NCBI GenBank assembly: GCA_964388455.1 | Contig: CAYMAN010000005.1 | Location: 2,920-66,919 of the forward strand | DNA: 64,000 bases | Source: an uncultured Eubacteriales bacterium | GTDB lineage: Bacteria > Actinomycetota > Coriobacteriia > Anaerosomatales > JAAXUF01 | Direction: 5' to 3' | Part shown: piece after piece, positions 3,321-52,868 of the stretch | Layout: the number at the start of each line of letters is the position of its first letter | Position numbering within the stretch: position 1 is the stretch's first letter | Notes under the pieces: generated by a model | Database searches by the model: none | Told to the model about the DNA's origin: nothing | What the model saw: only the letters and a program-made list of their open reading frames with translations | Program-made: the position numbers and the translations under genes

Positions 3321-3381
3321 GCTTTCCCAAACCTCCTTCACGCACTCCTAGTGCTAGTAAGACTTGCCGAGAACGAGCACG

Positions 3382-6455: not shown

Positions 6456-7301
6456 CTACGGAAGCTGCTTTGCGACGGCGATCAGGGCGTTCTTGAGACC
6501 CGCCTGCTTACCGGGATCGGCCGCCATCTCCACCTGGATAAGCACAGCACCTTGCGTGAATGCAAGAATCGCATACCGAGTGTTGTCGGTGCCAAAATAC
6601 GCAGAATGTCCATTGACTTTCACCGTGCTCGCACCCATGGAGTAGGGGCGCTTCGAGTACGCCTCGAGAGCGGCTGCGGCGTAGCCCTTGTCCCGGAACT
6701 GCTCAACGTCGATGACCAGAGCGCGCACCTTGGACCCTGATGCCGGGACGTACTGACGTGTGAGGTTAAAGGCGCCCGCCACTGGCTTGGCCGCCTTGAA
6801 CCCTGTCAAGGTTCCGGGAGCCCACTTCAGCAGCGTTTTGACCGGACCGGTAATCTCGTCGTCACCGGGCTTCGCGGTACCCGTGGTGGGATTGGAGCCA
6901 CCGGATCCGGGGTTCGCAGTGTCGGGTGTCGGCTTCTTGCCGGACTTGATGACGGCCAGCTGCTTTGCCGCCTGACGGAATGCAGGGTCGTCGGCGACGA
7001 TCTGGGCGAGCTTCAACTGCGCTGCGGCCATATCACCCTTGGTGATGTCGGCCTGTGCTGCCGCGTAGAGAGCGTCAAGCTTCTTATGCCGATCACAGGT
7101 GATAGTGACGGTCTCGGCCTTGCGCAGGGTAGCCTCCTCGGCGGGGACGCTCACCGTTTTGATGGTGTTTGAGACGACCTCACCGTAAGTGCAGAGGGTG
7201 CGTGTCCCGGACTGGACCTCAACCTTCTTCTGACAGCCCCCTGTCGCGACCAATGAAGCCGTCAGTGCCGCAAGCGCGAGTATGGATCCAAGACGTCTCA
7301 T
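6456..7301 (-). CDS. Lipoprotein of unknown function
   Basis: MRRLGSILALAALTASLVATGGC is a signal peptide with a lipobox. The ATG 7301 overlaps the upstream stop as ATGA. The track start at 7493 adds an Arg-rich extension that overlaps the upstream gene, so I rejected it. Confidence 0.7.
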   Translation of the reverse strand: MRRLGSILALAALTASLVATGGCQKKVEVQSGTRTLCTYGEVVSNTIKTVSVPAEEATLRKAETVTITCDRHKKLDALYAAAQADITKGDMAAAQLKLAQIVADDPAFRQAAKQLAVIKSGKKPTPDTANPGSGGSNPTTGTAKPGDDEITGPVKTLLKWAPGTLTGFKAAKPVAGAFNLTRQYVPASGSKVRALVIDVEQFRDKGYAAAALEAYSKRPYSMGASTVKVNGHSAYFGTDNTRYAILAFTQGAVLIQVEMAADPGKQAGLKNALIAVAKQLP

Positions 7302-8764
7302 ACGTTCTCCTTCGGTGGCGAAGCGACAGACGCACTGCCCGCGCTGAGACGGCGCACGAGTGTCACGATCAGCAACACGCATGCCCCTGCCGAAAGCGCG
7401 AGAGCGGTGTATCGGACGAGGTGAGGAGCGACTTCCAAGGACAAGCGAGCATATTCCGTGCCGTAGGCCTGCTGGATCTCCGCAGGAATCCATCTCGTCC
7501 AGGTATGAAGCGGAGTGGATACAACGAGGGGATAGGCGGCAGCAGCCAACAGCGCCGAAACGGCAGCGAAGAGCGCCTCACGGACCCCGACCATTCGCCG
7601 GGACTCGATGGCTGTTGCCAGTGCGAGGAGGGACACGCTCAGCAGGAGCCATCCGACTGCTGCCTCGGCTCCGCTGAACGTCCAGTTCGCCGCGAATGCG
7701 GCGCCCGCCTCAGTGGTACCTACGACCGATGCGTTGAACGCGGGCAGAAAGAGCGCGGCGGTCGAAACCGCTGTCGCAATGCCCGCAAGCGCGATCGCCG
7801 CAATCGATTCCGGGGCCCGAGGAGCGGCGGATAAGACTTCCGCAGCCTCGGTGCAATGCGCGGTGTGCAAGACCAGTAGGCCGAGGACCACCAGCACGGA
7901 TCCACCAGCGGCCCCGGTCCACACGATCGGCGCAGGACCGAAGGCGCCCGTGAGTCGCTCGACTACTGTCAGAGCGGTGAGCGCCATCGGTGTCACGACC
8001 ATCCACGCAGTGGCTCTGACGACACCCCGTGAGCCTGCGAACCCGGCGAGTCCGGTAGCCATCGTCGACAACGCCACACCCGCGAGCATCAGCTGCGGCC
8101 ATGTGCGGCTGTAAGCGGCCGCTGCGGGCATGGTGTCGGGCAATGCGACCACAACAGACAGAGTGGTAGCGGCAGCGACACCGATCCAGAGCGAGGAGCG
8201 AAGTCCCATCAGTCCTGCGCTTCGACGAGCACCGATCAGTCCTAGGGCGAACACCCCACCAGCGCCAAAAATGATCGCCTCCTGTAGGGGGAACTTCATG
8301 AACGGCGAGAATGAACTGGGTCGCTCCCAATTGCCGAGAAGCGCTGCGGTGCCGAGGATCGTCATCAGGACAGCGGCGGACTGGACGTACGTCGGCCGCT
8401 CACGGCGAAAGAACGACGCCGCGAGCGCGGAGGCGAGCAACGCACCCGCTGTGGTGAAGAACAGGGTCTCGGTTCCTGACGGCGCGTCAGTGGCCCGCTG
8501 TGACAGCACGATCAAGGGGGCCAGGTACCACGCGAGAACACCCGCCGCACCAGCAAGAACGGTCTCGCGACGCCCGGCCGCTTTCACGCGAGCCGGTACA
8601 GCGCTGCCCACGAAGCCCGAGATGAACGCGATGGCCACCACAAGCGATGCGGCCATGATGACCGAATCGGGAACCTCGCCGATCAGGAGCGTGGACACGA
8701 CGAACCACGCGGCCGAACCAGCAACGATCATGGCGACACAGAGCGACTGATTGGACAATCTCAC
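7298..8764 (-). CDS. Polytopic integral membrane protein (~14 hydrophobic helices), unknown function
   Basis: Hydrophobic Ala/Leu/Gly/Val-rich segments run throughout the protein. GTG start with SD GGAGGAG. I recognise no cofactor or transporter motif. Confidence 0.6.
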   Translation of the reverse strand: MRLSNQSLCVAMIVAGSAAWFVVSTLLIGEVPDSVIMAASLVVAIAFISGFVGSAVPARVKAAGRRETVLAGAAGVLAWYLAPLIVLSQRATDAPSGTETLFFTTAGALLASALAASFFRRERPTYVQSAAVLMTILGTAALLGNWERPSSFSPFMKFPLQEAIIFGAGGVFALGLIGARRSAGLMGLRSSLWIGVAAATTLSVVVALPDTMPAAAAYSRTWPQLMLAGVALSTMATGLAGFAGSRGVVRATAWMVVTPMALTALTVVERLTGAFGPAPIVWTGAAGGSVLVVLGLLVLHTAHCTEAAEVLSAAPRAPESIAAIALAGIATAVSTAALFLPAFNASVVGTTEAGAAFAANWTFSGAEAAVGWLLLSVSLLALATAIESRRMVGVREALFAAVSALLAAAAYPLVVSTPLHTWTRWIPAEIQQAYGTEYARLSLEVAPHLVRYTALALSAGACVLLIVTLVRRLSAGSASVASPPKENV

Positions 8765-8808
8765 AACGAAGCTCCTCCAGGAATGCTGTCGATCGTATCG
8801 TCCACAAA

Positions 8809-8840
8809 GGAAGGGCCGGGAAGCGTTCCCCGGCCCTTCC
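8809..8840 (-). terminator. Very stable GC-rich hairpin between the hexaheme cytochrome gene and the membrane-protein gene
   Basis: GGAAGGGCCGGG..CCCGGCCCUUCC forms a 12-bp perfect stem, extended by 2 bp after a one-nt bulge, with loop GCG. It is followed by UUUGUGG on the minus strand. Confidence 0.5.
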
Positions 8841-8875
8841 GACAGTACCAGACTCTTGATGCATTGAGTGCTGAA

Positions 8876-10114
8876 CTACTTGTTGTGGCAGTTCTCACAC
8901 ACGCCGCGGTTGTCCATACGGAGCAGTGCCGAAGGCGTGCTGGAAACGAACGGCGGCAGGCCCGAGCCAGATGTGTCGACTGAGAAGCCGGACATCTGCG
9001 CGACCGTGCCGTGTGCCCTGTGGCACGTGAGGCACTCGACCCAGTCGGTCGCTGTCGTCGAAGGGTTGCCCTTCTCGGAGAGATTGTTCGCGACCGGAAG
9101 TGCCAGACCAGCTACGTTCAGCGGCGTGGCGGTCGAGTTGTAAGAAGCGAGCTCCACGTTGATCGGGTGCTTGTGGCGCAGCGTCAGCGCGGCCCCATCG
9201 CCAGCGTTATACGTGCTGGCGAGCGACTGGTAGACGACACCCAGGCTGCTGGTGAACTGCTCCGTCGCGTCACCGACATACGTCGAGTGACAGCCGGCGC
9301 ACCAACCGCTCATGCCCTTGTCAGGGTTCTCGACGCCCGTGGCCATGTCATAGCCCTTGGCGTACATCGGAGTGGTGTAGTTAGGCTCGTACGCGGGGTA
9401 GCCGCCAGGATTGTGAAGACGGAAGCCCTTGTCGGGCCATCCGGTCTCTACCGACGAGACGAAGCCGTCTGGCGTCGGGTCGGCCGGGGCGGTAGCGGAT
9501 GTCACGTAGCCACCGACGTAGTTGCCGTTGACGAGCGACTTCAGGATGCGGTAGTTCGAGCTGCCGTGAGGATCATGGCAGGTGGCGCAGTCCATGGCGA
9601 TCTTGTTGGACTCGCCCGCAAGGTTGCTGGTCAGAGGGTTGCCGGTTTCGGTGTAGTTACCGGTCGCACCCGCAGTGCCCTTGCCGAAGTAGCCACCGCC
9701 GTAGGCACCCCACGCGGCACCGTTGGCGATATGCCACGACGTGGTGGCACTATCATCGAAGGACTCAAAGCCACCTGCGTTGAGTATGCCCATGTTGGTA
9801 CCGTAGTCGGTTCCGTAGTACAGACCATCGCTGACGTTGGTATCCGCGCTCTGTCCAGCTGAGTCGTGACACGCGTAGCAGAACTCCTGCATTGTCGTGG
9901 CCGACGAGACCAGCAAAGCACTGTGCTCAGTCGTTCCACTCGCGTCAGTCCACGTGAGCGAACTGACAGAAGTGTGTGCACGGTGACAACCAGCGCAAGC
10001 GTCGGTGTCGTTCACGTAGTTGCCATGGATCGCGAAGTTGGCGAACGCTGCCGAGGGAACGAGGATGGCTGCGAATGCGACGATCGCGAGCAGAATCGAG
10101 AATCTCTTCGTCAT
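8876..10114 (-). CDS. Secreted hexaheme c-type cytochrome
   Basis: Signal peptide MTKRFSILLAIVAFAAILVPSAAFA. Six CxxCH motifs: CAGCH, CYACH, CATCH, CAGCH, CLTCH, CENCH. SD GGGAGGTG. Confidence 0.85.
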   Translation of the reverse strand: MTKRFSILLAIVAFAAILVPSAAFANFAIHGNYVNDTDACAGCHRAHTSVSSLTWTDASGTTEHSALLVSSATTMQEFCYACHDSAGQSADTNVSDGLYYGTDYGTNMGILNAGGFESFDDSATTSWHIANGAAWGAYGGGYFGKGTAGATGNYTETGNPLTSNLAGESNKIAMDCATCHDPHGSSNYRILKSLVNGNYVGGYVTSATAPADPTPDGFVSSVETGWPDKGFRLHNPGGYPAYEPNYTTPMYAKGYDMATGVENPDKGMSGWCAGCHSTYVGDATEQFTSSLGVVYQSLASTYNAGDGAALTLRHKHPINVELASYNSTATPLNVAGLALPVANNLSEKGNPSTTATDWVECLTCHRAHGTVAQMSGFSVDTSGSGLPPFVSSTPSALLRMDNRGVCENCHNK

Positions 10115-10119
10115 ATCAG

Positions 10120-11010
10120 CTACACCTCCCCGCCGGTCACGGCGTCTGCTTCGTTCTTGGCTCTGCGTGAGGATATCGCCATCAGGCCACCGACTACAAG
10201 CGTCGGAAGCACGACGGCCTTTGCGAGCGAGCCAGTAAGCATGCCACTCACCATCGGAGCGACATGGTCCTCGATGAACGGATCCGCCTTGGGCGGAGCC
10301 AAGAGCGTCTTGCGACTCGCCCAGAACATCGAGTCACCACCGATGACGTTCACGGTGCCGTCGGCGAAGGTGTAGCCGTTGGCGGGATCCTGAACGTATG
10401 CGGCGATGTTGGCGCGAGTGTCCCACATCATGGCCTTCGCAGGACACGTTGAGACGCAGGCCGGCTCGTGAGCGCGACCGGGCGACGCAGCGATCTCGGC
10501 GGCGGTTGCACGGGTCTGCAGGGGCGGAAGGCCTGAGCCTGCCACATCCGCATCGGAACCGGCGCGACCGGCGCACAGGATGCACTTGTTCATCAGCGTG
10601 GACTCATTGCCGATGTAGGGCTTACCGATCTTGGGATAGCCGCCGCGCTGGCAGTTAACCTGGCACGGATACTGACCAAAACGGTCCTTGCACGCTGCCG
10701 GATCACAGAGGTTCGGATCCACGGCAACGGCGCCTGTACTGGGATTCCAGGTCAGGGCAGCCTTGCCGCTCGCGTCCTTGACGGGACACGCACGGGCGCA
10801 AGGAGCGTCGACGCAGTGCCAGCACGAGAACCGAATGAACGGGCCCATGTCGACACGCTTCTGGCTCTTGATCGTCACACGCTGATCATACGCAACGTTG
10901 TGAACGCCGATCGTCTCGGCGCGGATGTTCCACTCGCGCTTACAGGCAACGACACAGCCATTGCACCGCATGCACTTGTCCACATCTTGCAGAATTGCCA
11001 TCACAGTCAT
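10120..11010 (-). CDS. 4x[4Fe-4S] ferredoxin-type electron-transfer subunit (FdnH/DmsB-like) with C-terminal TM anchor
   Basis: Cys clusters CMRCNGCVVACK, CWHCVDAPCARACP, CILCAGR and CVSTCP. C-terminal helix VVLPTLVVGGLMAISS. SD GGGAGGTG. Confidence 0.85.
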   Translation of the reverse strand: MTVMAILQDVDKCMRCNGCVVACKREWNIRAETIGVHNVAYDQRVTIKSQKRVDMGPFIRFSCWHCVDAPCARACPVKDASGKAALTWNPSTGAVAVDPNLCDPAACKDRFGQYPCQVNCQRGGYPKIGKPYIGNESTLMNKCILCAGRAGSDADVAGSGLPPLQTRATAAEIAASPGRAHEPACVSTCPAKAMMWDTRANIAAYVQDPANGYTFADGTVNVIGGDSMFWASRKTLLAPPKADPFIEDHVAPMVSGMLTGSLAKAVVLPTLVVGGLMAISSRRAKNEADAVTGGEV

Positions 11011-11023
11011 CAGTCACACCTCC

Positions 11024-14000
11024 CTACATCTTCTTGATACGGCAGAGGCAGATCTTGTACTCAGGAATCAAAGTGTTTGCATCCCAGGCATCGATGGTGA
11101 GGTCGTTTGCACGCGAGCCGGTTGAGAGGCCCTTCTCACCCCAGTGCCATGGAATCGCGACTACACCGACGCCTACACGCTGGTTGGTGCTCTGTCCAAC
11201 GCCCACCTTGGCGCGCCAGCCCGCTCCGTAAGGAAGAAGCTTCTGGTCTGCAAGGCCCTCGGTGCGCTTCGTGATGATCTGGACCAAGTCACCATCCTGG
11301 ATGCCGTGGGCACGCGCATCGATGGAGTTGAGCTCGATCCACGGCTCGGGCTCGAGCTCATGGTTGTACGCGTTGTTTCGCGTGATCGGGCCACCCTGGA
11401 AATGCTCGACGCAACGAATCGTGGTGAGCATGAGCGGGTAGGTGTCCACGGTACCGATGGGCGACCGCGCGTCTGAAGTGGTGATCAGGTTCGCGGAGGT
11501 GCCGGTTGTGCCGTTCTTGCCCCACGTGAGCGCGAGCGTAGGCTCTGGGGTCTCGTACGGCTCGGTGTGGCCGGGGAAGCGGCCGGTGAGCACGTGCGGC
11601 GCGGTCGAGCCACCGATGCTGGGCAGATCCTTGAGGTTGTGGTGCTTGCGATAGTTGTTGTTCGCATAGTCCATGAGATCCGTGCTGAGCGTCGAGAAGA
11701 GTCTCGAGACGCGGTCCGGACCCTGGAACCCGTCCATCTGATCGCCAGGAACCTCAGCTGTGGCATCGACCGCTGCATTGTTGTTGTACAGAACGCGACG
11801 GTTGACCAGCCAAGAGTAGCCCCACTTGTGGAAGCCATAGGACTTGTAGGGATCTTCCTGTGAGCGACTCTTCGAGCGATTGGCAACTGTCCATGCAGTG
11901 TAGTCGGCACCGAGACGCGACTTGTTGAGAGTAGAGCTGTACGCCTCGTGGTAGATCCAGATCGTTCCGCCACCGGCGTTTGAGACGACGGTGCACATCT
12001 GGCGATACAACTTCTCCGCGACGTACTCGGCGCCCGTCATCGCGCCCGTCTTGATGCCACCCTCGTGGGTGAATCCGGACTCGGTCGCGTCCTTGAAATC
12101 ATCGACGGTAGCCGTTGCGTTCGGCGTCCAGCCGTACTGGCGACCGAACAGTGAGTCATACACCGATACGAAGGTGCCAGGTGTCGCACCGTCCGTGCTT
12201 GCTGCGAACGCTGCGCCCTTAGTCCATCCGAGACCGCCGGATGCCTTGGCCGTGGTCCACTTGTTCTCGATGTGCGAGAACACGCTCTTCTCGTCAAGCT
12301 TCTTGGCGAGACGAAGCAGCAGCTCGAGATCGGTCTTGCTGTTGCCGCTGGGGAGTTTGGCCTGATAGCGCCACTGCAGTACGCGACCGGAGTTGGTTGC
12401 GCTACCGGCCTGCTCGACGTGCGCGGCAGCCGGAATCAGGTACGTTACTGCACCATCCTTACGCGGAATAGCGGCCGTCTCAGTCTCGAAGACATCCTGT
12501 ACGACCAACAGATCGAGGTTCTTGAGGCCGTCGCGCACCACACCCTGGTTGGGCTCGGTCACGGCCGGGTTCTGGCCAAGAATGAACGCAGCCTTCGTGC
12601 CGCCTGCGACCATCTTGCGGAACATGGAGATGTGATCATCGCCGTTACCCTTTGGCCAGAGGTCGTACACAGCGTTGACCTTCGTGCGCCTGTCGGCGAT
12701 GGCTGCCGTGGCGGCGTCATCAACGTAGTCGTCGGCACCAGCGGCGTAGTTCGGAGCGAACCACCGCATGGTCATGTTGTAGAAGCCCTTGGACTGCAGG
12801 TTCAGGGGTCCCGTGCCTACCAAGCCCCATGTGCTACGAGTGAACGCGTCATCGTACGGGTTGGTGCCCATGTTCATGCGGTTGCCCCACAGGCCGTCCA
12901 TGTACTTACCGAACGCATTGACGTCATTCTTAGTCGAGTCCGAGTGACCAGCGCTCATCACCGTCGGGTTGCCCGAGTACGCAGGGATGTTGCCGAACAG
13001 CAGACCCATATCCGTGGAGCCCTGAACGTTGTGGATTCCACGAAGGGCGTTGATTCCGCCGCCCGCACGACCCGCGTTACCCAGAATGGTCTGGAGGTTG
13101 GCGAAGCCCTTGACGTTCTGCGAGCCACACGTGTGCTGGGTGATTCCCATTGCGTAGAGAATCGTGGTCGCACGATAGCCGGATGCGTAGGGCGTCTTGA
13201 CAAGACCCGTCAGCGGATCCGCGTCGCCTGCGCCGGTGTAGCTAGCCATGCGGCTGTGCTTGATCATTTCTTCGGCAACCGCAACAAGCTCGGCCGGGGT
13301 ACACCCGCAGATATCGGCAACAGTGGCCTCGTCATACGGTGCGACCTGGGCTTTGAGCTTCTGGAAAACACTGTCCGCATCGGTGATGTCGTTCGCGGCA
13401 ACAGGAAGCGCCGTGAACTGGAATGCAGCGTCCCACCAGCCCATACCGAAGTACAGGTTTGCCAGGCTATCTGAATACCAGAGTGCCCAGCTGGTACCGA
13501 CCTGGGCGACCACTGGACGCGCGGTGCCTGCGCTGGCGGTCACGCCCGGCAAACCCTTGATGTAACCGGTCAATCCGGCAGCCACAACAGGCCGCGTGAA
13601 GGTCAGGCCATCGGCGGAAGTTGCCGTGCTGATCTTCTGGATCTGATCCGTCAAGCTGTACCCAACGTACAGGAGCTGGTATGCAGCGCCGTTCTTGACA
13701 ACCATCGGGTGCATGACGCGATAGCTATCCCAGCCAGTCGCCGCAGGTGAAAGAGCCGGTACGGGACCGCCGACGACAGCCTCGAACGAGGCGTTGAAGG
13801 TGGTTGCGTCCCAGGTACCGGGCGCGTCCGTCGTGAAGCCCTGATACAGCTTGTACTCAGCGGCTGGATTCCCACGACCCTGGAAGTAGAGGCGATATGT
13901 CGCTCCATCCTTCAGGACCATAGGACGGTCGTACTTGTAGATGGTCATGCCCGCACTGTCGGTGACAGGTGTCGTCACCGGATCGAGGATGACGGCTTCG

Positions 14001-15526
14001 GCGCCCCATGTCAGGCCATCAGCAGAGCTGCGAATGGTGAGTTTACGATCCGCATCGTTGTTGACCATGTAGTACACGCCGGACTCAAGCCAGACGAACG
14101 GTGCATCGGCGCCGTCGGAGACGTTGGTATCGACACCCGTCGTCCACGTGTTGCCGTCCTTGGAGGTCGCGAACTGGATGTTCGTCTCCGCGCCTACAGC
14201 CGAGACGTACCACATCTTGTACTTCTTGGCGGCGTCAGTCTCCGCTGCGTCAAACACAACTGTCGGTGTGTTAGCGGCATATCCGGTTGCAGCAGCCTTG
14301 TTGTAGCGCTGATAGTCGCTGCCCACCGAGTTGATCTTCAGGCGTGCATCGGTGTACTTGGAGCGATCCGCGGCCGTAGCTACGCCGCCCCTAGCACCGT
14401 CGGGGATGAACGTCTGCGTCTGCTTCTGGTTAAGGAAGGCGTCGAAGTGAGTCTTGTACTTCTCCGTTGCAGCTGCGCCGTCCGCGATGTTGTTGATGAT
14501 GTAACGAATCAGGCCGTTCTGGAACGCGATGTCTGTTCCGGGACGGATACGCACATACATGTCCGCCTGCGTCGCGGTGCGCGTCTTGCGCGGATCGATG
14601 ACGATCATCTTCGCCGCGGGCTTTGCACTTATGTCGCCGTTAGGCAGAACCTGGTTGGCGGTCTTGGCGCGGTTGATGTGCGCCATGCACGCCGGATGGT
14701 TCTCTGCCGGATTAGCTCCCCACGCGATGACAAGCGTCGAGTTCGCGATATCTGTCCAGCTGTTGGTCATTGCTCCACGTGCGAATGCGGCGGCCAGACC
14801 GGCCACCGTTGACGAGTGTCATATTCGCGCCTGATGCTCGACGTTGCTGGTACCGAAGTTCGCGATGAGTTTGCGGTACAGATAGTTGCCTTCGCTGTTC
14901 ATGTGCGAACTACCGAAGAACGCAACGCCCTTACTGTTGTAGCCGTTCGCGGCCGACGGTGCTGAAACACCGGCGCCACCAACGTTGTCACGTGCGGCCT
15001 TGAGGCCGTCTGCGATCTCATCCATCGCCTGGTCTAGCGGCATCGCCGTCCACGCGGTGTTAACGCCTGATGCAGTTCCTGTGGACTTGTACGCGACGCC
15101 GTTAGGAGCAGCCGGGTCGGCAAGGAAGGCATTGCTGCCTGCAGGGTGGTTGAGACTGCCGCCGAGCTCAGGCGAGCCAGCTTCCCACGCACCGATACGA
15201 CGAGAGTTGTTCACGAGCTGAAGAGAGCCCGCACCCTTGGAGCACAGACCGCCGGTATTGAAGACGGACTCGAAATCGCCATAGATGTCGACGACCTTGC
15301 CAGATGATTTCTCAACGACTACTCGCTGCCCGCAACTAGCGGAACAGTAAGGACAGGTGGTTGTGGTGATCGTGTAGGCGGCCATTCCCTCGTACGCCGC
15401 TGCCTTTGCAGGGTCGTATGCGAAGTTGAGACCGCAACCAACCACCGCTGTTGCAGCAGCGGATGACTTCAGAAAGTCTCTACGTGAGAGTCCTGAGGCC
15501 CCCTGCCCGGTGTCTTTAGTTGCCAT
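11024..15526 (-). CDS. Tat-exported selenocysteine-containing molybdo/tungstopterin oxidoreductase, formate dehydrogenase (FdnG)-like, 1500 aa with internal beta-propeller-like insertion
   Basis: Track ORFs 14819..15526 and 11024..14806 are in the same frame and separated only by TGA 14819-14821. The joined reading is ...NVEHQARI-U-HSSTVAGLAAAFARGAMTNSW, which matches the FdnG/FdhF Sec context. Tat signal SRRDFLKSSAAATAVVG. N-terminal FeS motif CPYCSASCG...C. C-terminal pterin-binding region ...LTTIRCVEHFQGG... Confidence 0.85.
14789..14807 (-). promoter_or_regulatory. SECIS-like hairpin 11 nt 3' of the UGA codon
   Basis: GGUGGCC-GGUCU-GGCCGCC forms a 7-bp stem with one G-U pair. The GGUCU loop resembles the E. 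coli fdhF SECIS apical loop. Confidence 0.65.
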
Positions 15527-16046: not shown

Positions 16047-17543
16047 CTAGCGTTCATTCTGCCGATCGTTTGCGCCGAAATATCGTGCAATGAACTGCTC
16101 CGCATCAAATGTGCCAATCTCCGCTAAACGCGCAAGGCGCCGGAGATCCAAATCCTCGGTGCACAGACCCCGAGCACGATCAGCAAGTGCAAGGAGAATC
16201 GCCTCGCGCTCACCGATGTCGAGCTTCTCGCGCATCGCACGCACATCGGACTCCGAGTACTCCTCGGCCTGGATAAGCGTGCCAAGATCGACGTCGCCAA
16301 CGATGCGGCCCGCGTATAGCGCGTGGTCCATCTCAGGACAGAGCAGACGCAGCTTGCGCTTGGAGGCCACTTCGGCGATCACATCGCGCTGAATGAGCAC
16401 CTCGACGAACTCCGGTGAGACGACTAGGCGGACCTTTCTGAGCATCAACGGAATCAGGAGCAGAAGGAGCGGCAGGAGACACAGCGCCCAACCCCACGGC
16501 GTGCTGGGGGTGACAACTCTCGGGATGGGAGCAACCGGCCAGCCCCATACCTGGACCTGATCGTTCTCGCGGTCGGTGACGTAAATGCGGCCGTTCTTAT
16601 CGAGCGCCACATCTGCGGGATAGTTGAACTGACTGGGACCAAATCCCTTGGAACCGAACTGAACCAGCTGCTTGCCATCGAGATCGTAGATGTCCACGAC
16701 ATGTGCGAGAGCGTCGACCGCGAACAGATGCTTGGAATCCACAGCCAGACCGCGAGGAATACCCGATGAGTCGATGATGCGGATCAATTCGCCGGTTGGC
16801 TTGAACACCTGAATGCGACGGTTGTTGGAATCCGAGACGTAGACAGCGCCGTTCTTCGCCACAGCGATACCACTTGGAAAGAAGAACTCGCTCGGCGAAT
16901 CGATCACCGAGTTGGCCTGAACTGTCTTGCCGAACGTGACCGTTCGGCTGCCCTCGGTGGAGAAGAAGATGACTCTGTGTCGGTCCGTTGCGCCGACATC
17001 AGTGACTCTCGGCGCACCTGATGTGTCAAAGGAGATTGCCAGTGGAGCCCAACTGAACTTGGGTTCACCCTCCGGCGTGAACGTCCTCAGGTACTTACCC
17101 TCGAGGTCGTAGACGTAGATGGTCCTGAAGCGGCGCTCGGTTACCCACACCTCGGAGCCCTTGATGGCGACGTTCACTGGCGAGCGAAGTCGACCCTTGC
17201 CAGTGGTGCCGAACGAGAAGAGATACCTGCCGCGCGGAGCGAACACGCTCATCCGCCGATTGCCCGCGTCAACGACGTACACGCGGCCATCCGCGCCGAT
17301 ATCGACTCCGGCAGGGCGTCTGATCTGACCCTTGCCTTCGTCTCCGGTGATGGAGAACAGATACTGCGGCGCTGTCAACGCCGCTTGTGGCTCTCCCAAC
17401 TTCACAGACGGCAGGCTCTGGTTCCTCACAAAGTAGAACGTCGCATATGAAAGCAACGCGAGCAGCAAGAGGAGCAGAGCAAGCAGGATGACACGTTTGC
17501 GCTTCTGACGACGAGTTAGAGGCTGACGCGTGCTACTTGCCAT
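16047..17543 (-). CDS. Bitopic membrane protein: TM, NHL-repeat beta-propeller, TM, PIN-like C-terminal domain (paralog B)
   Basis: Same architecture as 3718..5220. Blades include VYVVDAGNRRMSVF, VWVTERRFRTIYVY, VYVSDSNNRRIQVF and IYVTDRENDQVQVW. TM2 is ALCLLPLLLLLIPLML, followed by RK. The start overlaps the upstream TPR gene by 11 nt. Confidence 0.8.
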   Translation of the reverse strand: MASSTRQPLTRRQKRKRVILLALLLLLLALLSYATFYFVRNQSLPSVKLGEPQAALTAPQYLFSITGDEGKGQIRRPAGVDIGADGRVYVVDAGNRRMSVFAPRGRYLFSFGTTGKGRLRSPVNVAIKGSEVWVTERRFRTIYVYDLEGKYLRTFTPEGEPKFSWAPLAISFDTSGAPRVTDVGATDRHRVIFFSTEGSRTVTFGKTVQANSVIDSPSEFFFPSGIAVAKNGAVYVSDSNNRRIQVFKPTGELIRIIDSSGIPRGLAVDSKHLFAVDALAHVVDIYDLDGKQLVQFGSKGFGPSQFNYPADVALDKNGRIYVTDRENDQVQVWGWPVAPIPRVVTPSTPWGWALCLLPLLLLLIPLMLRKVRLVVSPEFVEVLIQRDVIAEVASKRKLRLLCPEMDHALYAGRIVGDVDLGTLIQAEEYSESDVRAMREKLDIGEREAILLALADRARGLCTEDLDLRRLARLAEIGTFDAEQFIARYFGANDRQNER

Positions 17544-18537
17544 TGTTCACCTTTTCCAGACCGGCCTTCGCCGACGCATTGTTGGGTTCGATCACCAGGA
17601 CGCGCTGATACATCTCTGCGGCATGCTTCTTGGCACCCGTCTTGACCGCCAGGTCGCCGAGCAGGATGAGTGCCTCGACGTTCTGTGGTTCAAGAGCCAC
17701 CGCGATGCGTGCCTCGATCAGCGCGGCTTTGGGGTCCTTGGCTGCCTTGGTCTTGGCCGCGGCGAGGCGATCACTGAAGGGCCCGAGCTCATCCAGTGCA
17801 TCCTGCGGCAAGTCCACATTGGGGGCCGCGGCGATCGACGTGCGCAGGTGTTCTGCGGCCCCGGCCTTGTCGCCGTCCTTGAGGAGGAGGAGTGCGTAGT
17901 CGTAGTTCGCCTCGGGCATCTTGGGGTCGAACAGCAGCGTGTTCTCGAGCTCCTCGCGGTACTTTGAATCAGAACCCAGCTTGCTGTAGGTGAAAGCCAA
18001 TGCATAGTGCGTGTCCGAGGCGTCGCGTCGGAGAAGAATGGCCTTCTTGTAGTAGTTCGCGGCCTCCTCGTACTCCTTCTGCTCCATGAGCGCAGTGCCC
18101 AAGTAGAAGTACGCGATCTCGAGTTGCGCATCCGGACCGCTCTTGTGCTTGGGCTCGAGTATCGCGATCACTCGGCGGAAGTACGTCTCCCCCTCGGCGA
18201 ACTGCTTGCGCTGCAGGGCGAGAAAACCGATGCCTGAGATCGCAGGCGCGAAGTCCTTGCTGATCTTGAGTGCGGCCTCGTACTGCACCACCGCGTCCTT
18301 GTCCCGACCGGCGACCGCGAGAGCCTGCGCGAGCTGCATGCGTGCGTCGATGTCATTGGGGTTCTTGCGAACCCTGGCCTCGACAGCAGCGACCGCGCGC
18401 GCAGCGGGCGTTGAGTCAACGATCTGACGGCCCTGAGCCCAGACCGAATAGCCAAGATATGCGCCAAGAACAAGCACCACAACGGCTATGGCTGCTATGA
18501 CGGCGTCAAGCGGGCGGATGTTTCTGACAGTGGACAC
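17533..18537 (-). CDS. Membrane-anchored TPR-repeat protein (paralog B)
   Basis: N-terminal TM AVIAAIAVVVLVLGAYLGY followed by TPR-like repeats, e.g. ALKISKDFAPAISGIGFLAL and TLLFDPKMPEANYDYALLLL. GTG start with SD AAGGGAG. Confidence 0.75.
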   Translation of the reverse strand: MSTVRNIRPLDAVIAAIAVVVLVLGAYLGYSVWAQGRQIVDSTPAARAVAAVEARVRKNPNDIDARMQLAQALAVAGRDKDAVVQYEAALKISKDFAPAISGIGFLALQRKQFAEGETYFRRVIAILEPKHKSGPDAQLEIAYFYLGTALMEQKEYEEAANYYKKAILLRRDASDTHYALAFTYSKLGSDSKYREELENTLLFDPKMPEANYDYALLLLKDGDKAGAAEHLRTSIAAAPNVDLPQDALDELGPFSDRLAAAKTKAAKDPKAALIEARIAVALEPQNVEALILLGDLAVKTGAKKHAAEMYQRVLVIEPNNASAKAGLEKVNNGK

Positions 18538-18580: not shown

Positions 18581-20221
18581 CTAGATGTTCAGGTCGGTAT
18601 GGCAGCGCAAGCACAACGACGCTCCGGGATACGGAGCGATGATCTGATTCTGATAGTCGACCGCACCGTGGCAGCCATAGCACAAGCGAACGTCGTGCCC
18701 TGCGTTCGGCAGACTCCCGGCGGTCCCATCGTGCGCTGGCGACGACGCAGCGGTTGAGAACCCGATATGGCAGTCATCACAAGTGTACGGCTTCCCATCG
18801 TACGGTTTGCCACCTCGGGTCGTTCCGGTTTTGAAGTGCACGGCGTGCTCGGCGAAGCCCTTGTTCTTGATGGAAGTGGGCGGCTTCTTCGTCATCTCTT
18901 CATGGCACGGTACGCAGTTCTTCGAGATGAGCTCCGCCTTGGCGACCTTCTGGTGGTGGCAGTTCTGACACGTGGCCCGATTCGTGTGGCACACATTGCA
19001 GTCATCGGTCGTCACGCCGGGAGCCGGCCGGTGATTCTCGATCCAGCCGGTGGGGTGCGGCATGACGGTCTTGTGGCATCGCTGGCACGACTTCGCGTCA
19101 TGACACGAACCACACGCGCCCTTGCCGCCAAGGTACAGCGGTCCGTGCTTGGTCTTCCAGTCGGCCTTGAGATGGTCCTTCGGTACGACCGACTTGGCGG
19201 GCGCATTTGGCGATTCACTCTTGCCTGTGTGGCACTTCACACAGAAGGCGGACTTGTGACACATGGCGCAGTACGCAGGGTCAGCGTTGGCCGTCTTCTG
19301 GTGTTTGCCCCGCACAAACGACTTGGTGTGATTCTTGGGAACCAGGTCGAAGCTCTTGGGGTGGCACTTGAGACACGCGTCCCCGGCGACGAGCCCCTGT
19401 GTCGAATGCTCGAGCCCGTGGCACCGGTAGCAGGACAGCATCTCGGGCTTGGTCGCGCCATCTGCCGTGTGTCCGAACGTCGGGTGGCACACGCTGCATT
19501 TGTAGTTGCGCTCGACGTGCGCCGAGTGGGCGAAGATGAGCGGCCCGGGCATGAAAGCGTCAAGATTGGGATGGCAGTAAGAGCACTGCGACATCGTCGT
19601 CGAACCCGTCGGATAGATCTTGATCGATGGGTCTTTCGCCTTCTCGGTGATTATTGAAGCGTATGTGGGAGGCATGGGCGGGATATCGAGATTCTTGTCC
19701 TTGTGGCAGACGTCGCAGTCTTTGACGGACTCATGGCACATCATGCACTGGTTGACACCGGAATCGTTGGCGACGTCGGCGTGGGGCTTGTTGGGCCAGT
19801 CTTTGACGTGACTCTTGGGGCGCAGCGTCTTTGACTTCGTGTGGCACTTGTTGCACTCGGCGGTTGCGAGTTCGCCCTGAGGTCCATGCGAAACGCCGTG
19901 GCACGCGAAGCACACTTCCATCGGGACCGTCTCCGTGACGCCGTCCCGGTGGGGCATGCGGGCATGGCAACCGTCGCAAGCGACCATGAGATGGTTTCCG
20001 TGGCTGAAGATCAATCCCGGCTGGTTGACCGAGCCCAAGTCGAGGTGACACGGCACGCACTGTGAGCGGTCGACGGAAGCTGCGGTGTCGATGACCGGAT
20101 CGGGCGAACCTGGTGTCGCGGCCAATCCGAAACGCACAGAAGCAAGCAGGAAGGCGGCCACGAGAACAGTCGCGGCCACCCCCCAAACCCAGTTATGTCG
20201 ATTGTGTCGTGCGTCAATCAC
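18581..20221 (-). CDS. Membrane-anchored multiheme c-type cytochrome, 20 CxxCH motifs
   Basis: N-terminal TM VWGVAATVLVAAFLLASV. I count 20 CxxCH motifs, from CVPCH and CDGCH through CYGCH and CLRCH. GTG start with SD TAGGGAG. Confidence 0.85.
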   Translation of the reverse strand: MIDARHNRHNWVWGVAATVLVAAFLLASVRFGLAATPGSPDPVIDTAASVDRSQCVPCHLDLGSVNQPGLIFSHGNHLMVACDGCHARMPHRDGVTETVPMEVCFACHGVSHGPQGELATAECNKCHTKSKTLRPKSHVKDWPNKPHADVANDSGVNQCMMCHESVKDCDVCHKDKNLDIPPMPPTYASIITEKAKDPSIKIYPTGSTTMSQCSYCHPNLDAFMPGPLIFAHSAHVERNYKCSVCHPTFGHTADGATKPEMLSCYRCHGLEHSTQGLVAGDACLKCHPKSFDLVPKNHTKSFVRGKHQKTANADPAYCAMCHKSAFCVKCHTGKSESPNAPAKSVVPKDHLKADWKTKHGPLYLGGKGACGSCHDAKSCQRCHKTVMPHPTGWIENHRPAPGVTTDDCNVCHTNRATCQNCHHQKVAKAELISKNCVPCHEEMTKKPPTSIKNKGFAEHAVHFKTGTTRGGKPYDGKPYTCDDCHIGFSTAASSPAHDGTAGSLPNAGHDVRLCYGCHGAVDYQNQIIAPYPGASLCLRCHTDLNI

Positions 20222-20244: not shown

Positions 20245-21585
20245 CTAGTCGCCGCCCAGCCCACGAATGCGGGCGATCAGTTGAAGCAGTGCGTTCTGTT
20301 CCTGGGCCTCGCCCTTACGATGGATCAGTTCGCCCGCGGCGGCACCGAACTCCTCGCTCGATCCCTTGTGGCAACCTTCCTGGCCGCACGTCGTGCCGAT
20401 GTTCTTGGTCGAGACGCTGGATGCGGCATTCGCACTAGGAAGAACCTCGTGCGCCTCATGGCACTGCCAACATGCGGGTGAATCTGCGGCGCCGTTCTTG
20501 TATGCACGCCCATGATAGTAGTCATTGTACGTCGCGTAATCGTCGCCGTGCTGCTTACAGCGGGCGCAGGTGCGATAAGCCGATCCATGCATACGCAGCT
20601 TGCCGGCCTCTGTCGCGGTACTGTAGATGAAGTGACCGCCGTGGCAGGATGCGCAGGTGGCCGACTCGTAGTCACCTTCGAGCAGCTTCTCGGAGTGAAC
20701 CGACTTGCCGTACTCGGCGACCGGGTCCTTGAGCTTCGGCTCCTCGAGATCCTGATGGCACGTGCCACACGCGATGCCGGCGTTGATGTTCCATAGCTTG
20801 GTCACACCTGGCTTGTCGTCGTAACGATAGTCCGGGTGACACTGCTGGCATGTGTTTTCGCGGTGCGCAGAGTCATCGACTCCGGCCACCTCGAACGATT
20901 TGGCTGCGCCGGCCGACTGCTTCAAGAGCGTCGAACTGCCGTGACACGACTGACAGCCGTTGTCACTGTCGAAGTCCCACCCGGTCGACGGGGTCCAGTC
21001 GATGTTCTCGCGGAGGTGACAGTCCACGCAGTCGGCAGCCTTATGACACATCATGCACTTGGTGTTGAGCGCATCGTTCGAAGGCTTGACGTGCGGTTTC
21101 TGTGCCCAATCCGCGGTGTGGAAGGCGGGGCGAAGACGCCACTTAGGCGTCACGTGACAGGCATCGCAATTGTCCTTGGCGATGATACCCATCGAGCCGT
21201 GGCGCAGTCCGTGGCAGTCGAAACAGCCCTTCATGGTCGGGCGCTCAGTGCCGGTCTTACGGTGAGGGAATCGCGGGTGACAACCGCTGCACTGCACGAT
21301 GATGTGGTTGCCGTGCGAGAACTTGATCGACGATGAGTAATTCTTGGAAAGTGCGATGTTGCCGTGACACAACGTGGTGCACGCTGCACCATCGACCTGC
21401 GAGCCAGCGAGCTGGTCGAAGAGCTGTGTGATAGAAGCGGAGCCCGTCGTGAGATCGATCTCGTCGACCGGCACGGCGTCCGCAGCGAAGACGAACGACG
21501 TTGATGCGATAACGGTACAGAACGCTGCCGTCGCGAGTGCGAAGGCGAGCAGCCTGCCGGGGCGTGCTCTGAACCTGAAGGTCAT
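20245..21585 (-). CDS. Secreted multiheme c-type cytochrome: 10 CxxCH plus CX3CH, CxxCK and CX4CH sites
   Basis: Signal peptide MTFRFRARPGRLLAFALATAAFCTVIASTSFVFA, from ATG 21585 with SD GGAGAAGGGG; the track start 21816 is rejected. Variant motifs are CTTLCH, CARCK and CGQEGCH. The N-terminal half is homologous to the 20-heme protein and the C-terminal part to the 7-heme protein. Confidence 0.8.
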   Translation of the reverse strand: MTFRFRARPGRLLAFALATAAFCTVIASTSFVFAADAVPVDEIDLTTGSASITQLFDQLAGSQVDGAACTTLCHGNIALSKNYSSSIKFSHGNHIIVQCSGCHPRFPHRKTGTERPTMKGCFDCHGLRHGSMGIIAKDNCDACHVTPKWRLRPAFHTADWAQKPHVKPSNDALNTKCMMCHKAADCVDCHLRENIDWTPSTGWDFDSDNGCQSCHGSSTLLKQSAGAAKSFEVAGVDDSAHRENTCQQCHPDYRYDDKPGVTKLWNINAGIACGTCHQDLEEPKLKDPVAEYGKSVHSEKLLEGDYESATCASCHGGHFIYSTATEAGKLRMHGSAYRTCARCKQHGDDYATYNDYYHGRAYKNGAADSPACWQCHEAHEVLPSANAASSVSTKNIGTTCGQEGCHKGSSEEFGAAAGELIHRKGEAQEQNALLQLIARIRGLGGD

Positions 21586-21644
21586 GCTGTCGTACCCCTT
21601 CTCCCCGTTGGGCCCTCTTGGGAGCGCCCAACGCACTGATGGTC

Positions 21645-22646
21645 CTATCCTGCGAACAGTGATCTGACTGAATCGATCATCGATCGAACCGCAGTCCGTA
21701 CCGTGCTCACAGCCGCGTACAGAGGGTTCTCGTCGTACACCTGCTGCGCGCTGTGCACGAGCACGCCGAAGTCGAGGAACGTATCGTCCATCTCGCCTGC
21801 GTGACAGGTGCCACACGTCTCAGGAAGGTTGTTGCGGTTGACCGCAGACTTGCGGTCGTCGGCAGCAAGCACTTGATGCGTCTCGTGACACTGCCAGCAG
21901 GCAGGAGCGTCTGATGCGCCCACCTGATAGGCGCGGCCATGGTAGTAGTCCATGTACTCGACCGTGTACTTCTCGTGGCACGACCCGCACATGGCGACCG
22001 CTGAGGCGCGAACGGCCTCGTTGCCCGCCGTGTCTTCTTTGCTGGGAATACCGTGTCCGCCGTGGCAGTCGCCACACAGAGGACGCGGCTTGCCCGGTGC
22101 CGAGGAATCGGCTGCGCCGACGGTGGACGAGCTGTCTCCGGGACGGCCTGCCGGCGAGTGCGCCCCACTGGTGTAGAGCGTGAACGCGTCTTTGTGGCAG
22201 TTCTTGCAGGACAGCTTGGCCACCTCGCGCCACTCTTCACCGTTCTTTACGATGGTGTCATGGGGCGTCTTGTACGCGAAGTCGACGTGGCAGCTGGTGC
22301 ACGGCACGTTCTTGTGCGCCGAGCCCTGAATTATCTCCGTGTCGACGTACAGGGAGATGATCTTGCCGGCCTGGATCCGCATGAGATTCTGGTCACCGTG
22401 GCACACGCCGCAACCCGACTTGCCGGCGGTCGGCAACGTCCAGTCGAGGTCGTACGTGGGTTTCAGCGGAGCCTTCTTGGTGACAGTCGCGGTCTTGGTC
22501 GCCGACTTAGACGAGGCAGTGACCGACGCGGGGACAGCTGGCATCGCCGTTGAAGTGGTGGCGGGGGCCGCCAAAGAGACCCCCGGAAGCCCAATGGCTA
22601 CCGCAAGCGCACCAGCAACAATGGTCGAGCGCAGAATCATCCGCAA
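21645..22646 (-). CDS. Secreted heptaheme c-type cytochrome
   Basis: Signal MRMILRSTIVAGALAVAIGLPGVSLA. Seven CxxCH motifs: CGVCH, CTSCH, CKNCH, CGDCH, CGSCH, CWQCH, CGTCH. The start is TTG 22646 or ATG 22640. Confidence 0.85.
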   Translation of the reverse strand: MRMILRSTIVAGALAVAIGLPGVSLAAPATTSTAMPAVPASVTASSKSATKTATVTKKAPLKPTYDLDWTLPTAGKSGCGVCHGDQNLMRIQAGKIISLYVDTEIIQGSAHKNVPCTSCHVDFAYKTPHDTIVKNGEEWREVAKLSCKNCHKDAFTLYTSGAHSPAGRPGDSSSTVGAADSSAPGKPRPLCGDCHGGHGIPSKEDTAGNEAVRASAVAMCGSCHEKYTVEYMDYYHGRAYQVGASDAPACWQCHETHQVLAADDRKSAVNRNNLPETCGTCHAGEMDDTFLDFGVLVHSAQQVYDENPLYAAVSTVRTAVRSMIDSVRSLFAG

Positions 22647-22658
22647 CTTCGTTGCTCC

Positions 22659-23522
22659 CTAGACCTGGTCTGCCACGGGTACCGCCGGAGCGTGCTCCAT
22701 ACCGGGAGCCTTGGCATCGTGCGCACGGTCATCGCCATGTGCGTCACCGTGATCGCCATGCTCGGCGTGGGGCCTGTCCAGAAAACCCAGACCGAAGAAG
22801 TCCAGGAACGCCGGGAGGTCCTCGGTGACTGAGAGGTACACGTGAATCGTGGTGAGAACAATGAACAGCCAGTTGATGAGGTAGTGGATGGTTCTGACCC
22901 ACCACACACCGCTGGCGCCGATGAGTCCGGCAACAAGCTGCTGGAGGCTGACATCGACGATCGGCAACATGAGTCGCCAGAGCATCAGGCCGGTGATGGC
23001 CTGTGCGATCAGCAGCGGCACGAACAGCGTGTACGTGCCCTTCTGCATGATGTTGTACTTGCCCAGGTGCGGCTTGGACGGCTTCACGAAGATGTAATAC
23101 AGAATGACCTTCGGGGCCGTGGTGAGGTCGCGCTTGCTGATGGCGAACTCGCGATAGTCACGACGGCGCGAGCCGAACGCGTACCACAGGCGCACGATCA
23201 GGTTGACGATCACGATGATCATCGCGATGTAGTGCACCCACTGCATGAACGCACGGCCACCGTTGAAGAACGGGAACCGAATGTACATGCCCGACACGCC
23301 CAGCGCGATCATGGCAGCGACGTGCTGGAAGTGCAGAAGCTTGGGAAGTGCAGGAATAGGTCCGCCTTCATGCGCAGGCCACTCCCAACCGACAAACCTT
23401 CGTTTAGCGCGACCAGTCAGGATGTTGCCGAGGAAGTGGCCTGAGAGCGCCACAACAATCACCACATAGAGCGTGGTGAACACGACATCGATCCAGACGT
23501 TAAGCTGCGTCAGTCCGATCAA
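22659..23522 (-). CDS. Integral-membrane b-type cytochrome (Ni/Fe-hydrogenase / FdnI-type cytochrome b family-like) with His/Asp-rich C-terminal tail
   Basis: Four to five TM helices carry conserved His residues (LLHFQHVAAMIAL, WVHYIAMIIV, VRTIHYLINWLFIVLTTIHVYL). Tail: RPHAEHGDHGDAHGDDRAHD. TTG start with SD GGGAGTAGGGGG. Confidence 0.65.
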   Translation of the reverse strand: MIGLTQLNVWIDVVFTTLYVVIVVALSGHFLGNILTGRAKRRFVGWEWPAHEGGPIPALPKLLHFQHVAAMIALGVSGMYIRFPFFNGGRAFMQWVHYIAMIIVIVNLIVRLWYAFGSRRRDYREFAISKRDLTTAPKVILYYIFVKPSKPHLGKYNIMQKGTYTLFVPLLIAQAITGLMLWRLMLPIVDVSLQQLVAGLIGASGVWWVRTIHYLINWLFIVLTTIHVYLSVTEDLPAFLDFFGLGFLDRPHAEHGDHGDAHGDDRAHDAKAPGMEHAPAVPVADQV

Positions 23523-52866: not shown

Positions 52867-52868
52867 CC

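Follow-up and report, generated by a model that had tools for sequence, protein, structure and literature searches.

What do two membrane-anchored proteins without a single CXXCH heme-attachment motif contribute to a cluster of multiheme cytochrome genes? The question is raised by a stretch of 64,000 nt (hereafter the window) of contig CAYMAN010000005.1 (assembly GCA_964388455.1, positions 2,920 to 66,919, forward strand), from an uncultured bacterium assigned to the Anaerosomatales within the Coriobacteriia. Here, a gene for a TPR (tetratricopeptide repeat) protein followed by a gene for an NHL-propeller protein occurs twice. The passage of electrons from the membrane to minerals or electrodes across a thick cell wall is poorly understood, and attention has been directed almost entirely at the cytochromes. 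The answer favoured here, with a probability of roughly 0.45, is that the pair constitutes a membrane-anchored, outward-facing docking or assembly platform for the secreted multiheme cytochromes of single-membrane Actinomycetota.

A sequence-only reading of the window had described the two pairs as a duplication. The four open reading frames (ORFs) concerned were all found on the minus strand where that reading had placed them:

17533..18537, minus strand: TPR1, 334 aa, with one N-terminal membrane helix (approximately residues 10-30); its TPR solenoid is predicted to lie outside the cytoplasm
16047..17543, minus strand: NHL1, 498 aa, with a first transmembrane helix (TM1), a six-bladed NHL propeller, a second transmembrane helix (TM2) and a PIN-like domain predicted to be cytoplasmic
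5277..6323, minus strand: TPR2, a paralogue of TPR1 with one N-terminal membrane helix; it may begin with the TTG at 6323 or with the ATG at 6317
3718..5220, minus strand: NHL2, a paralogue of NHL1 with the same order of helix, propeller, helix and PIN-like domain

The duplication is real, since both proteins are paralogous between the copies and their repeats are confirmed by Pfam. NHL1 and NHL2 share 38% identity over 469 aa (E = 1e-84), as do TPR1 and TPR2 over 317 aa (E = 2e-65). The Pfam NHL repeat (PF01436) scored 85.9 bits in NHL1 and 84.4 bits in NHL2 (cut-off 20), and TPR_2 scored 73.1 bits in TPR1 and 80.1 bits in TPR2 (cut-off 27), in three to four separate stretches. The stop codon of TPR1 and the start codon of NHL1 overlap within 11 nt (ATGGCAAGTAG).

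One genome per species was scanned for related loci, and the window proteins were compared with all ORFs of the 78 loci obtained. A full NHL ORF is carried by 75 of these, which are of the Coriobacteriia/Actinomycetota type, and a TPR homologue lies directly upstream on the same strand in 71/75. Of the other four loci, L051 and L076 are cut off by a contig end, and L061 and L073 are frameshifted assemblies in which TPR fragments can still be recognised. The spacing between the two genes ranges from -44 to +63 nt, the commonest arrangement being the 11-nt overlap found in the window, and both paralogue lineages are kept across genomes at 40-88% identity. The neighbours in the 78 loci are cytochrome, formate dehydrogenase (FDH) and hydrogenase genes. 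Their usual order is cytochrome b, three multiheme cytochromes, TPR1, NHL1, the FDH-like module, a hexaheme cytochrome, two proteins with twelve and one transmembrane helices (12-TM and 1-TM), TPR2, NHL2 and hydrogenase. FDH genes always come after pair 1 and hydrogenase genes always after pair 2. The modules around the pairs are shuffled between genomes, with the pairs remaining among cytochrome modules. Moreover, every locus that has enough flanking sequence encodes cytochromes with 6-20 CXXCH motifs, and an 18-20-heme cytochrome is often the next gene upstream of the TPR gene, no other gene being detected between them.

An independent test came from a subfamily 30-45% identical to the window proteins, for which metagenome contigs were scanned; most of these distant members lie on contigs too short for gene context. 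The neighbouring genes differ from those described above, and the named members are again Actinomycetota. In all 12 loci that hold both a PIN-like NHL protein and upstream sequence, a TPR gene is found just upstream, usually adjacent. Here too, the loci with sufficient flank all encode cytochromes with 6-20 CXXCH motifs, and in three of them (L084, L086, L088) a cytochrome with 18-20 hemes is the first gene detected on the upstream side of the TPR gene. Across lineages, no upstream neighbour accompanies the pair more consistently than the 20-heme cytochrome, which is likely to be a client or partner. The sequence-only reading had pointed to wide occurrence of the pair away from cytochromes as the observation that would count against it. 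No such occurrence emerged from the related and distant loci, because wherever the flank suffices the pair always sits among multiheme cytochrome genes. The TPR-NHL pairing is a genuine and ancient association that has been strictly kept.

NHL1 was modelled with AlphaFold2 from 82 homologues, with a mean predicted local distance difference test (pLDDT) score of 91.5. The model consists of a long helix (residues 11-41), a propeller of approximately 24 strands (60-334), a helical membrane segment (349-367) and an alpha/beta domain (371-497). The parts of the protein map to the window as follows:

17424..17492, minus strand: NHL1 TM1 (approximately residues 18-40), preceded on the cytoplasmic side by the basic stretch RRQKRKR
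16536..17378, minus strand: NHL1 propeller (approximately residues 56-336), predicted to be extracytoplasmic, with a conserved QVQVWGWP at its end
16440..16499, minus strand: NHL1 TM2 (approximately residues 349-368), followed on the cytoplasmic side by LRKxR
16053..16433, minus strand: NHL1 PIN-like alpha/beta domain (approximately residues 371-497), pLDDT 92.8 when modelled alone, with PIN domains at the top of its Foldseek list

As modelled, the propeller is a six-bladed NHL fold. Foldseek matched it to the NHL domains of Thin, TRIM71 and TRIM2 with TM-scores of 0.84-0.86 (normalised by target length), and also to the Brat NHL domain and the sensor domain of mycobacterial PknD (PDB 1rwl, rank 43). 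The description of NHL1 as helix, propeller and helix given by the sequence-only reading thus stands for all three elements, but missed a third module, the PIN-like domain that follows TM2. No family-level name was obtained for the NHL or TPR proteins from an NCBIfam scan, in which ScyF, MamA, PrsT, PilW and YbgF all fell below cut-off.

That reading had also placed the TPR and propeller domains outside the cell. This was assessed from charge bias, taken as the mean number of lysine and arginine residues in the 15 positions before and after each helix. For the NHL proteins the values are 5.8 before and 2.0 after TM1, and 0.7 before and 3.9 after TM2 (66 orthologues), which strongly predicts an inside N-terminus, an outside propeller and an inside PIN-like domain. 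The bias at the TPR helix is moderate (2.7 before and 1.7 after, with more before in 69% of 68 orthologues); an outward-facing TPR domain is likely, if less secure than the placement of the propeller. Three lines point to a single-membrane actinobacterium as the host. Homologues and related contigs come mostly from Coriobacteriia, Anaerosomatales, Aquicultorales and unclassified Actinomycetota metagenome-assembled genomes (MAGs), several being labelled otherwise, e.g. 'uncultured Eubacteriales'. The nearest locus (L001) is that of a Coriobacteriia MAG, at 84-87% identity. Lastly, a window protein of 1182 aa (43138-46686, minus strand) carries CWB2 cell-wall-binding repeats and InlB-like B-repeats, as would suit a cell with one membrane and a wall-anchored surface layer. 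The host is an anaerobe that probably respires iron or electrodes.

The C-terminal domain of the NHL proteins comprises approximately 125 residues after the second membrane helix. PIN domains formed the large majority of the top 40 Foldseek matches to the domain of NHL1 in the PDB, with probabilities of up to 1.00 and TM-scores of up to 0.69, and the best fold matches were PAE0151, HARP RNase P, VapC21, VapC4, Nob1 and SMG6; the best E-value was only 2.5e-3. A PIN-like alpha/beta/alpha fold is predicted from this comparison. In Pfam, 1 of 21 members matched PIN (PF01850, E = 0.04). A sequence-profile search of the PDB with the domain returned nothing significant, the best match (SidK, E = 0.75) being meaningless. 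Only fold comparison, not sequence search, was informative about the identity of this domain. NHL1 itself displays the motifs D/E378, D406, S430-x-S-D433, R456 and T462-x-D464. Conservation was computed over 211 non-identical family members, and PIN positions were assigned by pattern and secondary structure without superposing coordinates, so that a single active site is not implied by the following values:

D/E378: 95% conserved, PIN-signature position (pattern-matched)
D/E406: 75% conserved, PIN-signature position (pattern-matched)
T/S462: 92% conserved, PIN-signature position (pattern-matched)
D/E464: 88% conserved, PIN-signature position (pattern-matched)
D480: 68% conserved, fourth acidic PIN position (pattern-matched)
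S430: 95% conserved, outside the canonical PIN signature
D/E433: 97% conserved, outside the canonical PIN signature
R456: 93% conserved, outside the canonical PIN signature

A profile of the domain was searched against 1.84 billion representative proteins and gave 82 matches. The domain appears to be confined to this NHL family, because 81 of the 82 are either the C-terminus of proteins of 440-630 residues with the same architecture or fragments. The odd one is a marginal match (E = 3e-4) to a repetitive protein of 2076 residues.

Several variants of these proteins were also observed. A distant member, P0190 (L084, 8493-10382), has an extension of approximately 130 residues after the PIN-like domain with two cysteine-rich CX6C...CX2H motifs and a faint match to zf-TRM13_CCCH, which hints at nucleic-acid binding. 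In the distant loci L081 (260-3744, minus strand) and L091, a divergently transcribed TPR-NHL-NHL-TPR set adjoins the canonical TPR/NHL-PIN pair; the extra NHL proteins are approximately 330 aa long, without the PIN-like tail, and two cytochromes with 11-12 hemes lie alongside. PADLOC found no recognisable defence system, with generic TPR matches only, apart from a weak match of four PDC-S70 candidate models to NHL1 residues 421-476 (16047-16283; E = 6e-5, 21 bits) that was absent from NHL2. This match probably reflects shared PIN-like features.

The genes upstream of the pairs are as follows:

18581..20221, minus strand: 20-heme cytochrome, 20 hemes in 546 aa, directly upstream of TPR1
20245..23522, minus strand: cytochrome b (22659-23522) and two multiheme cytochromes, at the head of the unit that ends with pair 1
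6456..15526, minus strand: module upstream of pair 2, comprising a selenocysteine-containing FDH-like enzyme (Tat-exported), an iron-sulphur (FeS) subunit, a secreted hexaheme cytochrome and the 12-TM and 1-TM proteins

Downstream of NHL2 come a hairpin that resembles a terminator and has a T-rich tail (3659-3636), a promoter-like site (3628-3600) and the hydrogenase small-subunit gene; downstream of NHL1 there is a promoter-like site (16009-15981) with 10 of 12 consensus matches. Gaps of 190-520 nt trail both pairs. The terminator-like and promoter-like sites are consensus matches only; together with the gaps, they agree with both pairs ending transcription units in this genome. Each pair may belong instead to the module downstream of it, given that FDH genes always trail pair 1 and hydrogenase genes pair 2. 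The gaps, the promoter-like sites and the hairpin after NHL2 favour separate transcription; the tight coupling of the pairs to the genes upstream points the other way. Expression could be followed in Coriobacteriaceae sp. EMTCatB1 (locus L025), using mean transcripts per million (TPM) in the supplementary tables of PMC7943316, gene numbers having been assigned to the locus by gene order and annotation:

1c0412, 20-heme cytochrome: TPM closed circuit 142, open circuit 11, BrES 51
1c0411, 'nrfG, TPR repeat': TPM closed circuit 57, open circuit 24, BrES 30
1c0410, next gene (NHL protein): TPM closed circuit 85, open circuit 23, BrES 33
1c0406, hexaheme cytochrome: TPM closed circuit 2716, open circuit 900, BrES 437

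Transcripts of the pair are of the same order of magnitude as those of the 20-heme gene, and for both the level is higher with the cathode working than at open circuit.

A docking or assembly platform is the most economical reading of a pair of proteins that is predicted to be tethered to the outer face of the membrane, made together and kept beside cytochromes despite shuffling and deep divergence. The TPR and NHL proteins would insert with their N-termini in the cytoplasm, as charge bias and the model suggest, presenting the solenoid and the propeller on the outer face of the membrane. They would be made together, because overlapping stop and start codons couple their translation, and would probably form a complex. 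TPR solenoids and NHL propellers are protein-binding modules. From this general role and from synteny we infer that the platform would bind Sec-exported multiheme cytochromes, chiefly the protein of approximately 20 hemes encoded directly upstream. It would then hold, orient or help to assemble them beside the cytochrome b/quinol-oxidising entry point into a wire across the cell wall. The retention of both paralogues suggests that the diverged second copy may serve a second module, either FDH/hexaheme or hydrogenase/hexaheme. The PIN-like domain, in turn, may oligomerise the platform or couple it to a cytoplasmic process.

Several observations weigh against a platform. The sequence-only reading had each pair closing a cytochrome operon, and this is usual but not universal. 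No cytochrome block lies upstream of pair 1 in L006, L009, L011, L012 and L017; pair 1 of L009 is preceded by molybdenum-cofactor genes, and in at least one such genome (L017 and L064, on one contig) the cytochrome b/multiheme block is found upstream of pair 2 instead. Genomes of the EMTCatB1 type hold a third NHL protein, again with a propeller between two transmembrane helices, that lacks both a TPR partner and the PIN-like domain:

L025, 19669-20898: third NHL protein, 5 nt after the 1-TM gene; also in L030, L032, L034, L035, L038 and L047

This protein represents the NHL component in minimal form, and its existence means that the parts are separable. A strongly conserved PIN-like domain with retained acidic residues would be needless for a passive scaffold; the tail could be an oligomerisation module, or a nuclease under the control of the outside domains. 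Finally, the EMTCatB1 transcript data come from two replicates per condition, and physical contact between the pair and a cytochrome is something that we infer.

An alternative is that the pair is a dedicated cytochrome c maturation chaperone, in which the TPR domain would bind unfolded, heme-dense apocytochromes and the propeller would present them to the System II machinery. The presumed client is indeed dense in heme (20 in 546 aa). TPR2 passes the cut-off of the TPR_CcmH_CycH model (PF23914, 49.9 against 42 bits) and TPR1 nearly does (41.2), the TPR orthologue of EMTCatB1 is automatically annotated 'nrfG', and the Uet cluster of the Tenderiales unites NHL genes, a TPR 'NrfG' and CcsA/CcsB. 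CcmI, CycH and NrfG are likewise membrane-anchored TPR proteins on the cytochrome c maturation side, but the profile similarity is weak. The generic TPR_2 signal is far stronger (73-80 bits), and the NCBIfam matches, all below cut-off, are headed by MamA and PrsT, with no CcmI/NrfG model among them. CcmI has two N-terminal membrane helices and a cytoplasmic loop (the CcmI-1 module), whereas TPR1 and TPR2 have a single hydrophobic segment (residues 10-28 and 23-41, respectively). Moreover, CcmI and NrfG operate with System I, and the pathway to be expected in an actinobacterium with one membrane is System II, which is not known to involve a TPR factor; no System I partners (CcmF/CcmH, NrfE/NrfF) were found among the window ORFs scanned. 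That the window holds no maturation genes, as the sequence-only reading had noted, was borne out by the absence of Ccm and Ccs genes from the same ORFs. This absence is weak evidence, because relatives carry such genes elsewhere: EMTCatB1 has a cytochrome c biogenesis permease gene (1c0392) approximately 20 genes from the cluster (PMC7943316 table), and cultured Anaerosomatales have biogenesis genes in other cytochrome clusters (PMC9686372). As an argument for a maturation role, the missing genes were rejected on this ground. Two diverged copies would also be unexpected for a general maturation factor. A maturation chaperone is consequently judged unlikely, and the CcmI-like role proposed earlier receives no specific support from a generic TPR match and one helix in place of two.

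The PIN-like tail gives rise to a different proposal, namely a transmembrane sensor or regulator in which the propeller and its TPR co-receptor sense the conduit or an external acceptor and control a PIN-type ribonuclease that tunes operon mRNA. The predicted fold, the expected PIN positions kept among the 211 members and the strong purifying selection on a domain found only in this NHL family are all consistent with it, and the layout of sensor, membrane helix and output recalls PknD, the NHL sensor domain of which was among the structural matches. Against this, the fold E-value and the Pfam match are weak, the fourth acidic position is aspartate in only 68% of members, and the acidic residues were mapped to the PIN site by pattern, not by structural superposition. 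The EMTCatB1-type cluster holds a propeller protein without the domain, and two sensors per cluster, one at each operon end, would be unusual. Such a regulator is improbable on present evidence, and slightly less probable again is its more specific form, a novel signalling or quality-control device in which propeller and TPR domain read the occupancy or redox state of a cytochrome wire and gate a membrane-tethered PIN ribonuclease that alters how stable the electron-transfer operon mRNAs are at their site of translation on the membrane. A surface adhesin or enzyme would link the pair to cytochromes only physiologically, the propeller binding mineral, wall polymer or electrode, or catalysing a reaction of the lactonase or lyase type. 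There are weak SGL/gluconolactonase and PAL lyase matches, but they are marginal (SGL 27.2 bits, cut-off 26.3; Vgb_lyase 12.7 bits, cut-off 50) and the invariant residues correspond to the structural NHL consensus. The propeller would also be poorly placed for contact with minerals, because the helices at both of its ends fix it at the plane of the membrane, beneath the wall. We regard this function as very unlikely. Finally, the pair could be unrelated membrane proteins that travel with the cluster through shared ancestry alone. All Coriobacteriia-type loci are related, and their synteny could be due in part to vertical inheritance. However, the modules shuffle with the pair remaining among them, the linkage recurs beside other neighbours in the subfamily of 30-45% identity, and the pair is co-regulated with cytochrome genes on the EMTCatB1 cathode; hitch-hiking is the least probable explanation of all.

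The genes around the pairs belong to one long array that lies within the first 24 kb of the window, all on the minus strand, and contains the cytochromes, both TPR/NHL pairs, the FDH-like module and the hydrogenase small subunit. From 5′ to 3′, it begins with cytochrome b, multiheme cytochromes with 7, 10 and 20 CXXCH motifs, TPR1 and NHL1. It continues with a Tat-signal molybdopterin enzyme with an in-frame TGA, the FeS subunit, the hexaheme cytochrome and the 12-TM and 1-TM proteins, and closes with TPR2, NHL2 and a Tat-signal NiFe hydrogenase small subunit (1968-3341). The window holds 62 CXXCH and 3 CX3-4CH sites, close to the approximately 66 heme sites counted by the sequence-only reading. 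By our reading of hydrophobic-segment prediction, the 20-heme and hexaheme cytochromes have signal-peptide-like N-termini.

The molybdopterin enzyme (11024-15526, minus strand) is a single frame broken by the TGA at 14819-14821 in the context ARI-U-HSSTVAGL, a sequence typical of selenocysteine sites in formate dehydrogenases. The same window also encodes SelB, SelA and a SelD-like protein (54950-59771, minus strand). The C-terminal part of the enzyme (1260 aa) is far longer than its FdnG counterpart. The 12-TM (7298-8764, minus strand) and 1-TM (6456-7493, minus strand) genes are kept after the hexaheme gene in nearly all related loci. Their products had no Pfam or NCBIfam match, even at E = 1, and may constitute a novel quinone-interacting membrane subunit of the FDH/hexaheme module. 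The hexaheme cytochrome (8876-10114, minus strand) has a weak structural match (E = 4e-4) to PDB 9yuq_N, a 'putative multiheme cytochrome c'; the 9yuq entry has 16 identical chains and may be a filament. Comparison of the hexaheme cytochrome with solved structures, as a test for an OmcS-like filament, gave no OmcS match. The gene for the NiFe hydrogenase small subunit trails pair 2. Further genes come after it in relatives, that for the large subunit presumably among them, and a second hexaheme cytochrome is encoded approximately 3.5 kb downstream. In the window itself, the edge presumably truncates the large-subunit gene. The G+C content is 0.59-0.63 over the array (1-24000) and 0.62-0.70, mostly ≥0.65, over the rest of the window (24000-64000), and the electron-transfer array may be an island gained by horizontal transfer. 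Another cytochrome, with 19 hemes, is encoded within 50616-54936 (plus strand), just upstream of genes for an OmpR-type response regulator and a HAMP histidine kinase, from which one small ORF separates it. This two-gene regulatory system could control the electron-transfer genes.

Being strictly conserved, duplicated, translationally coupled and embedded in cytochrome clusters, the non-heme pair is the most obvious candidate for a factor that positions or assembles the cytochrome wires of iron-reducing and cathode-associated Actinomycetota. It is also compact and makes a well-defined experimental target, since only two genes are involved, their topology is predicted and the propeller model is of high confidence. 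A membrane-tethered PIN-like domain is an unreported combination of domains and, if catalytic, would link envelope electron transfer to RNA metabolism. The statement of the sequence-only reading that no function has been characterised for the pairing still stands; NHL and TPR genes had been noted in electron-transfer clusters before, with no mechanism given. The report on cultured Anaerosomatales names a cytochrome/molybdopterin cluster as what probably determines Fe(III) reduction and leaves the TPR and NHL genes unmentioned (PMC9686372). What is new here is a TPR-to-NHL pair that is strictly kept, coupled in translation and duplicated, an NHL protein anchored in the membrane by two helices, a cytoplasmic PIN-like domain confined to this NHL family, and the limitation of this architecture to anaerobic Actinomycetota.

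Among known systems, Dethiobacter alkaliphilus is alike in being a Gram-positive host with NHL and TPR proteins encoded beside multiheme cytochrome genes, and a role in assembly or orientation has been proposed for them (PMC10376724). It belongs to another phylum, and the PIN-like tail was met in the profile search only in proteins whose named members are Actinomycetota. Geobacter GSU2505 and OscD resemble the NHL proteins in being propeller proteins whose genes neighbour that of an extracellular multiheme cytochrome, and in having been linked to the assembly, expression or filament morphology of this cytochrome. Shen et al. 2025 (Cell Chem Biol 32:239) reportedly describe OscD as propeller-like and able to bind heme. 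GSU2505, beside omcS, has been implicated in OmcS assembly (PMC9070056), and OscD, of the omcS-companion cluster, is said to affect nanowire morphology (PMC13194489). These proteins differ in being periplasmic or at the outer surface of a two-membrane host, with no TPR partner or PIN-like domain reported, and the comparison is one of fold and gene position. OscD is encoded with an OmcS-like hexaheme cytochrome, the peptidyl-prolyl isomerase (PPIase) OscH and OscEFG; no PPIase or ABC-type genes were detected in domain scans of the cluster studied here. NHL propellers are also conserved among multiheme cytochrome genes in the Tenderiales Uet cluster (UetH and UetI, with a TPR 'NrfG'; bioRxiv 10.1101/2022.05.06.490989) and in the electron-transfer cluster of Desulfovibrio ferrophilus (DFE_0451 and DFE_0463; PMC9769857), and Gmet_0556 is another NHL-repeat gene remarked upon in such a cluster. 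The Uet and D. ferrophilus hosts, however, have two membranes and porin-cytochrome conduits, their genes do not form a neighbouring pair with coupled translation, and descriptions of them mention no PIN-like domain.

Two further comparisons concern the parts of the NHL protein itself. PIN ribonucleases such as VapC toxins, HARP RNase P and Nob1 share the predicted alpha/beta/alpha fold, the T-x-D motif and an N-terminal aspartate with the NHL tail. Unlike them, the tail is fused to a membrane-embedded propeller protein, has no antitoxin partner and lies beneath detection as a PIN domain by sequence profiles. PknD of Mycobacterium tuberculosis (PDB 1rwl) is a membrane protein of an actinobacterium too, and it likewise has a six-bladed NHL propeller outside the cytoplasm and a further domain inside it. 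Pfam and NCBIfam scans of the NHL proteins gave no kinase domain. PknD joins its propeller through one helix to a Ser/Thr kinase, whereas NHL1 and NHL2 have two helices and a PIN-like domain.

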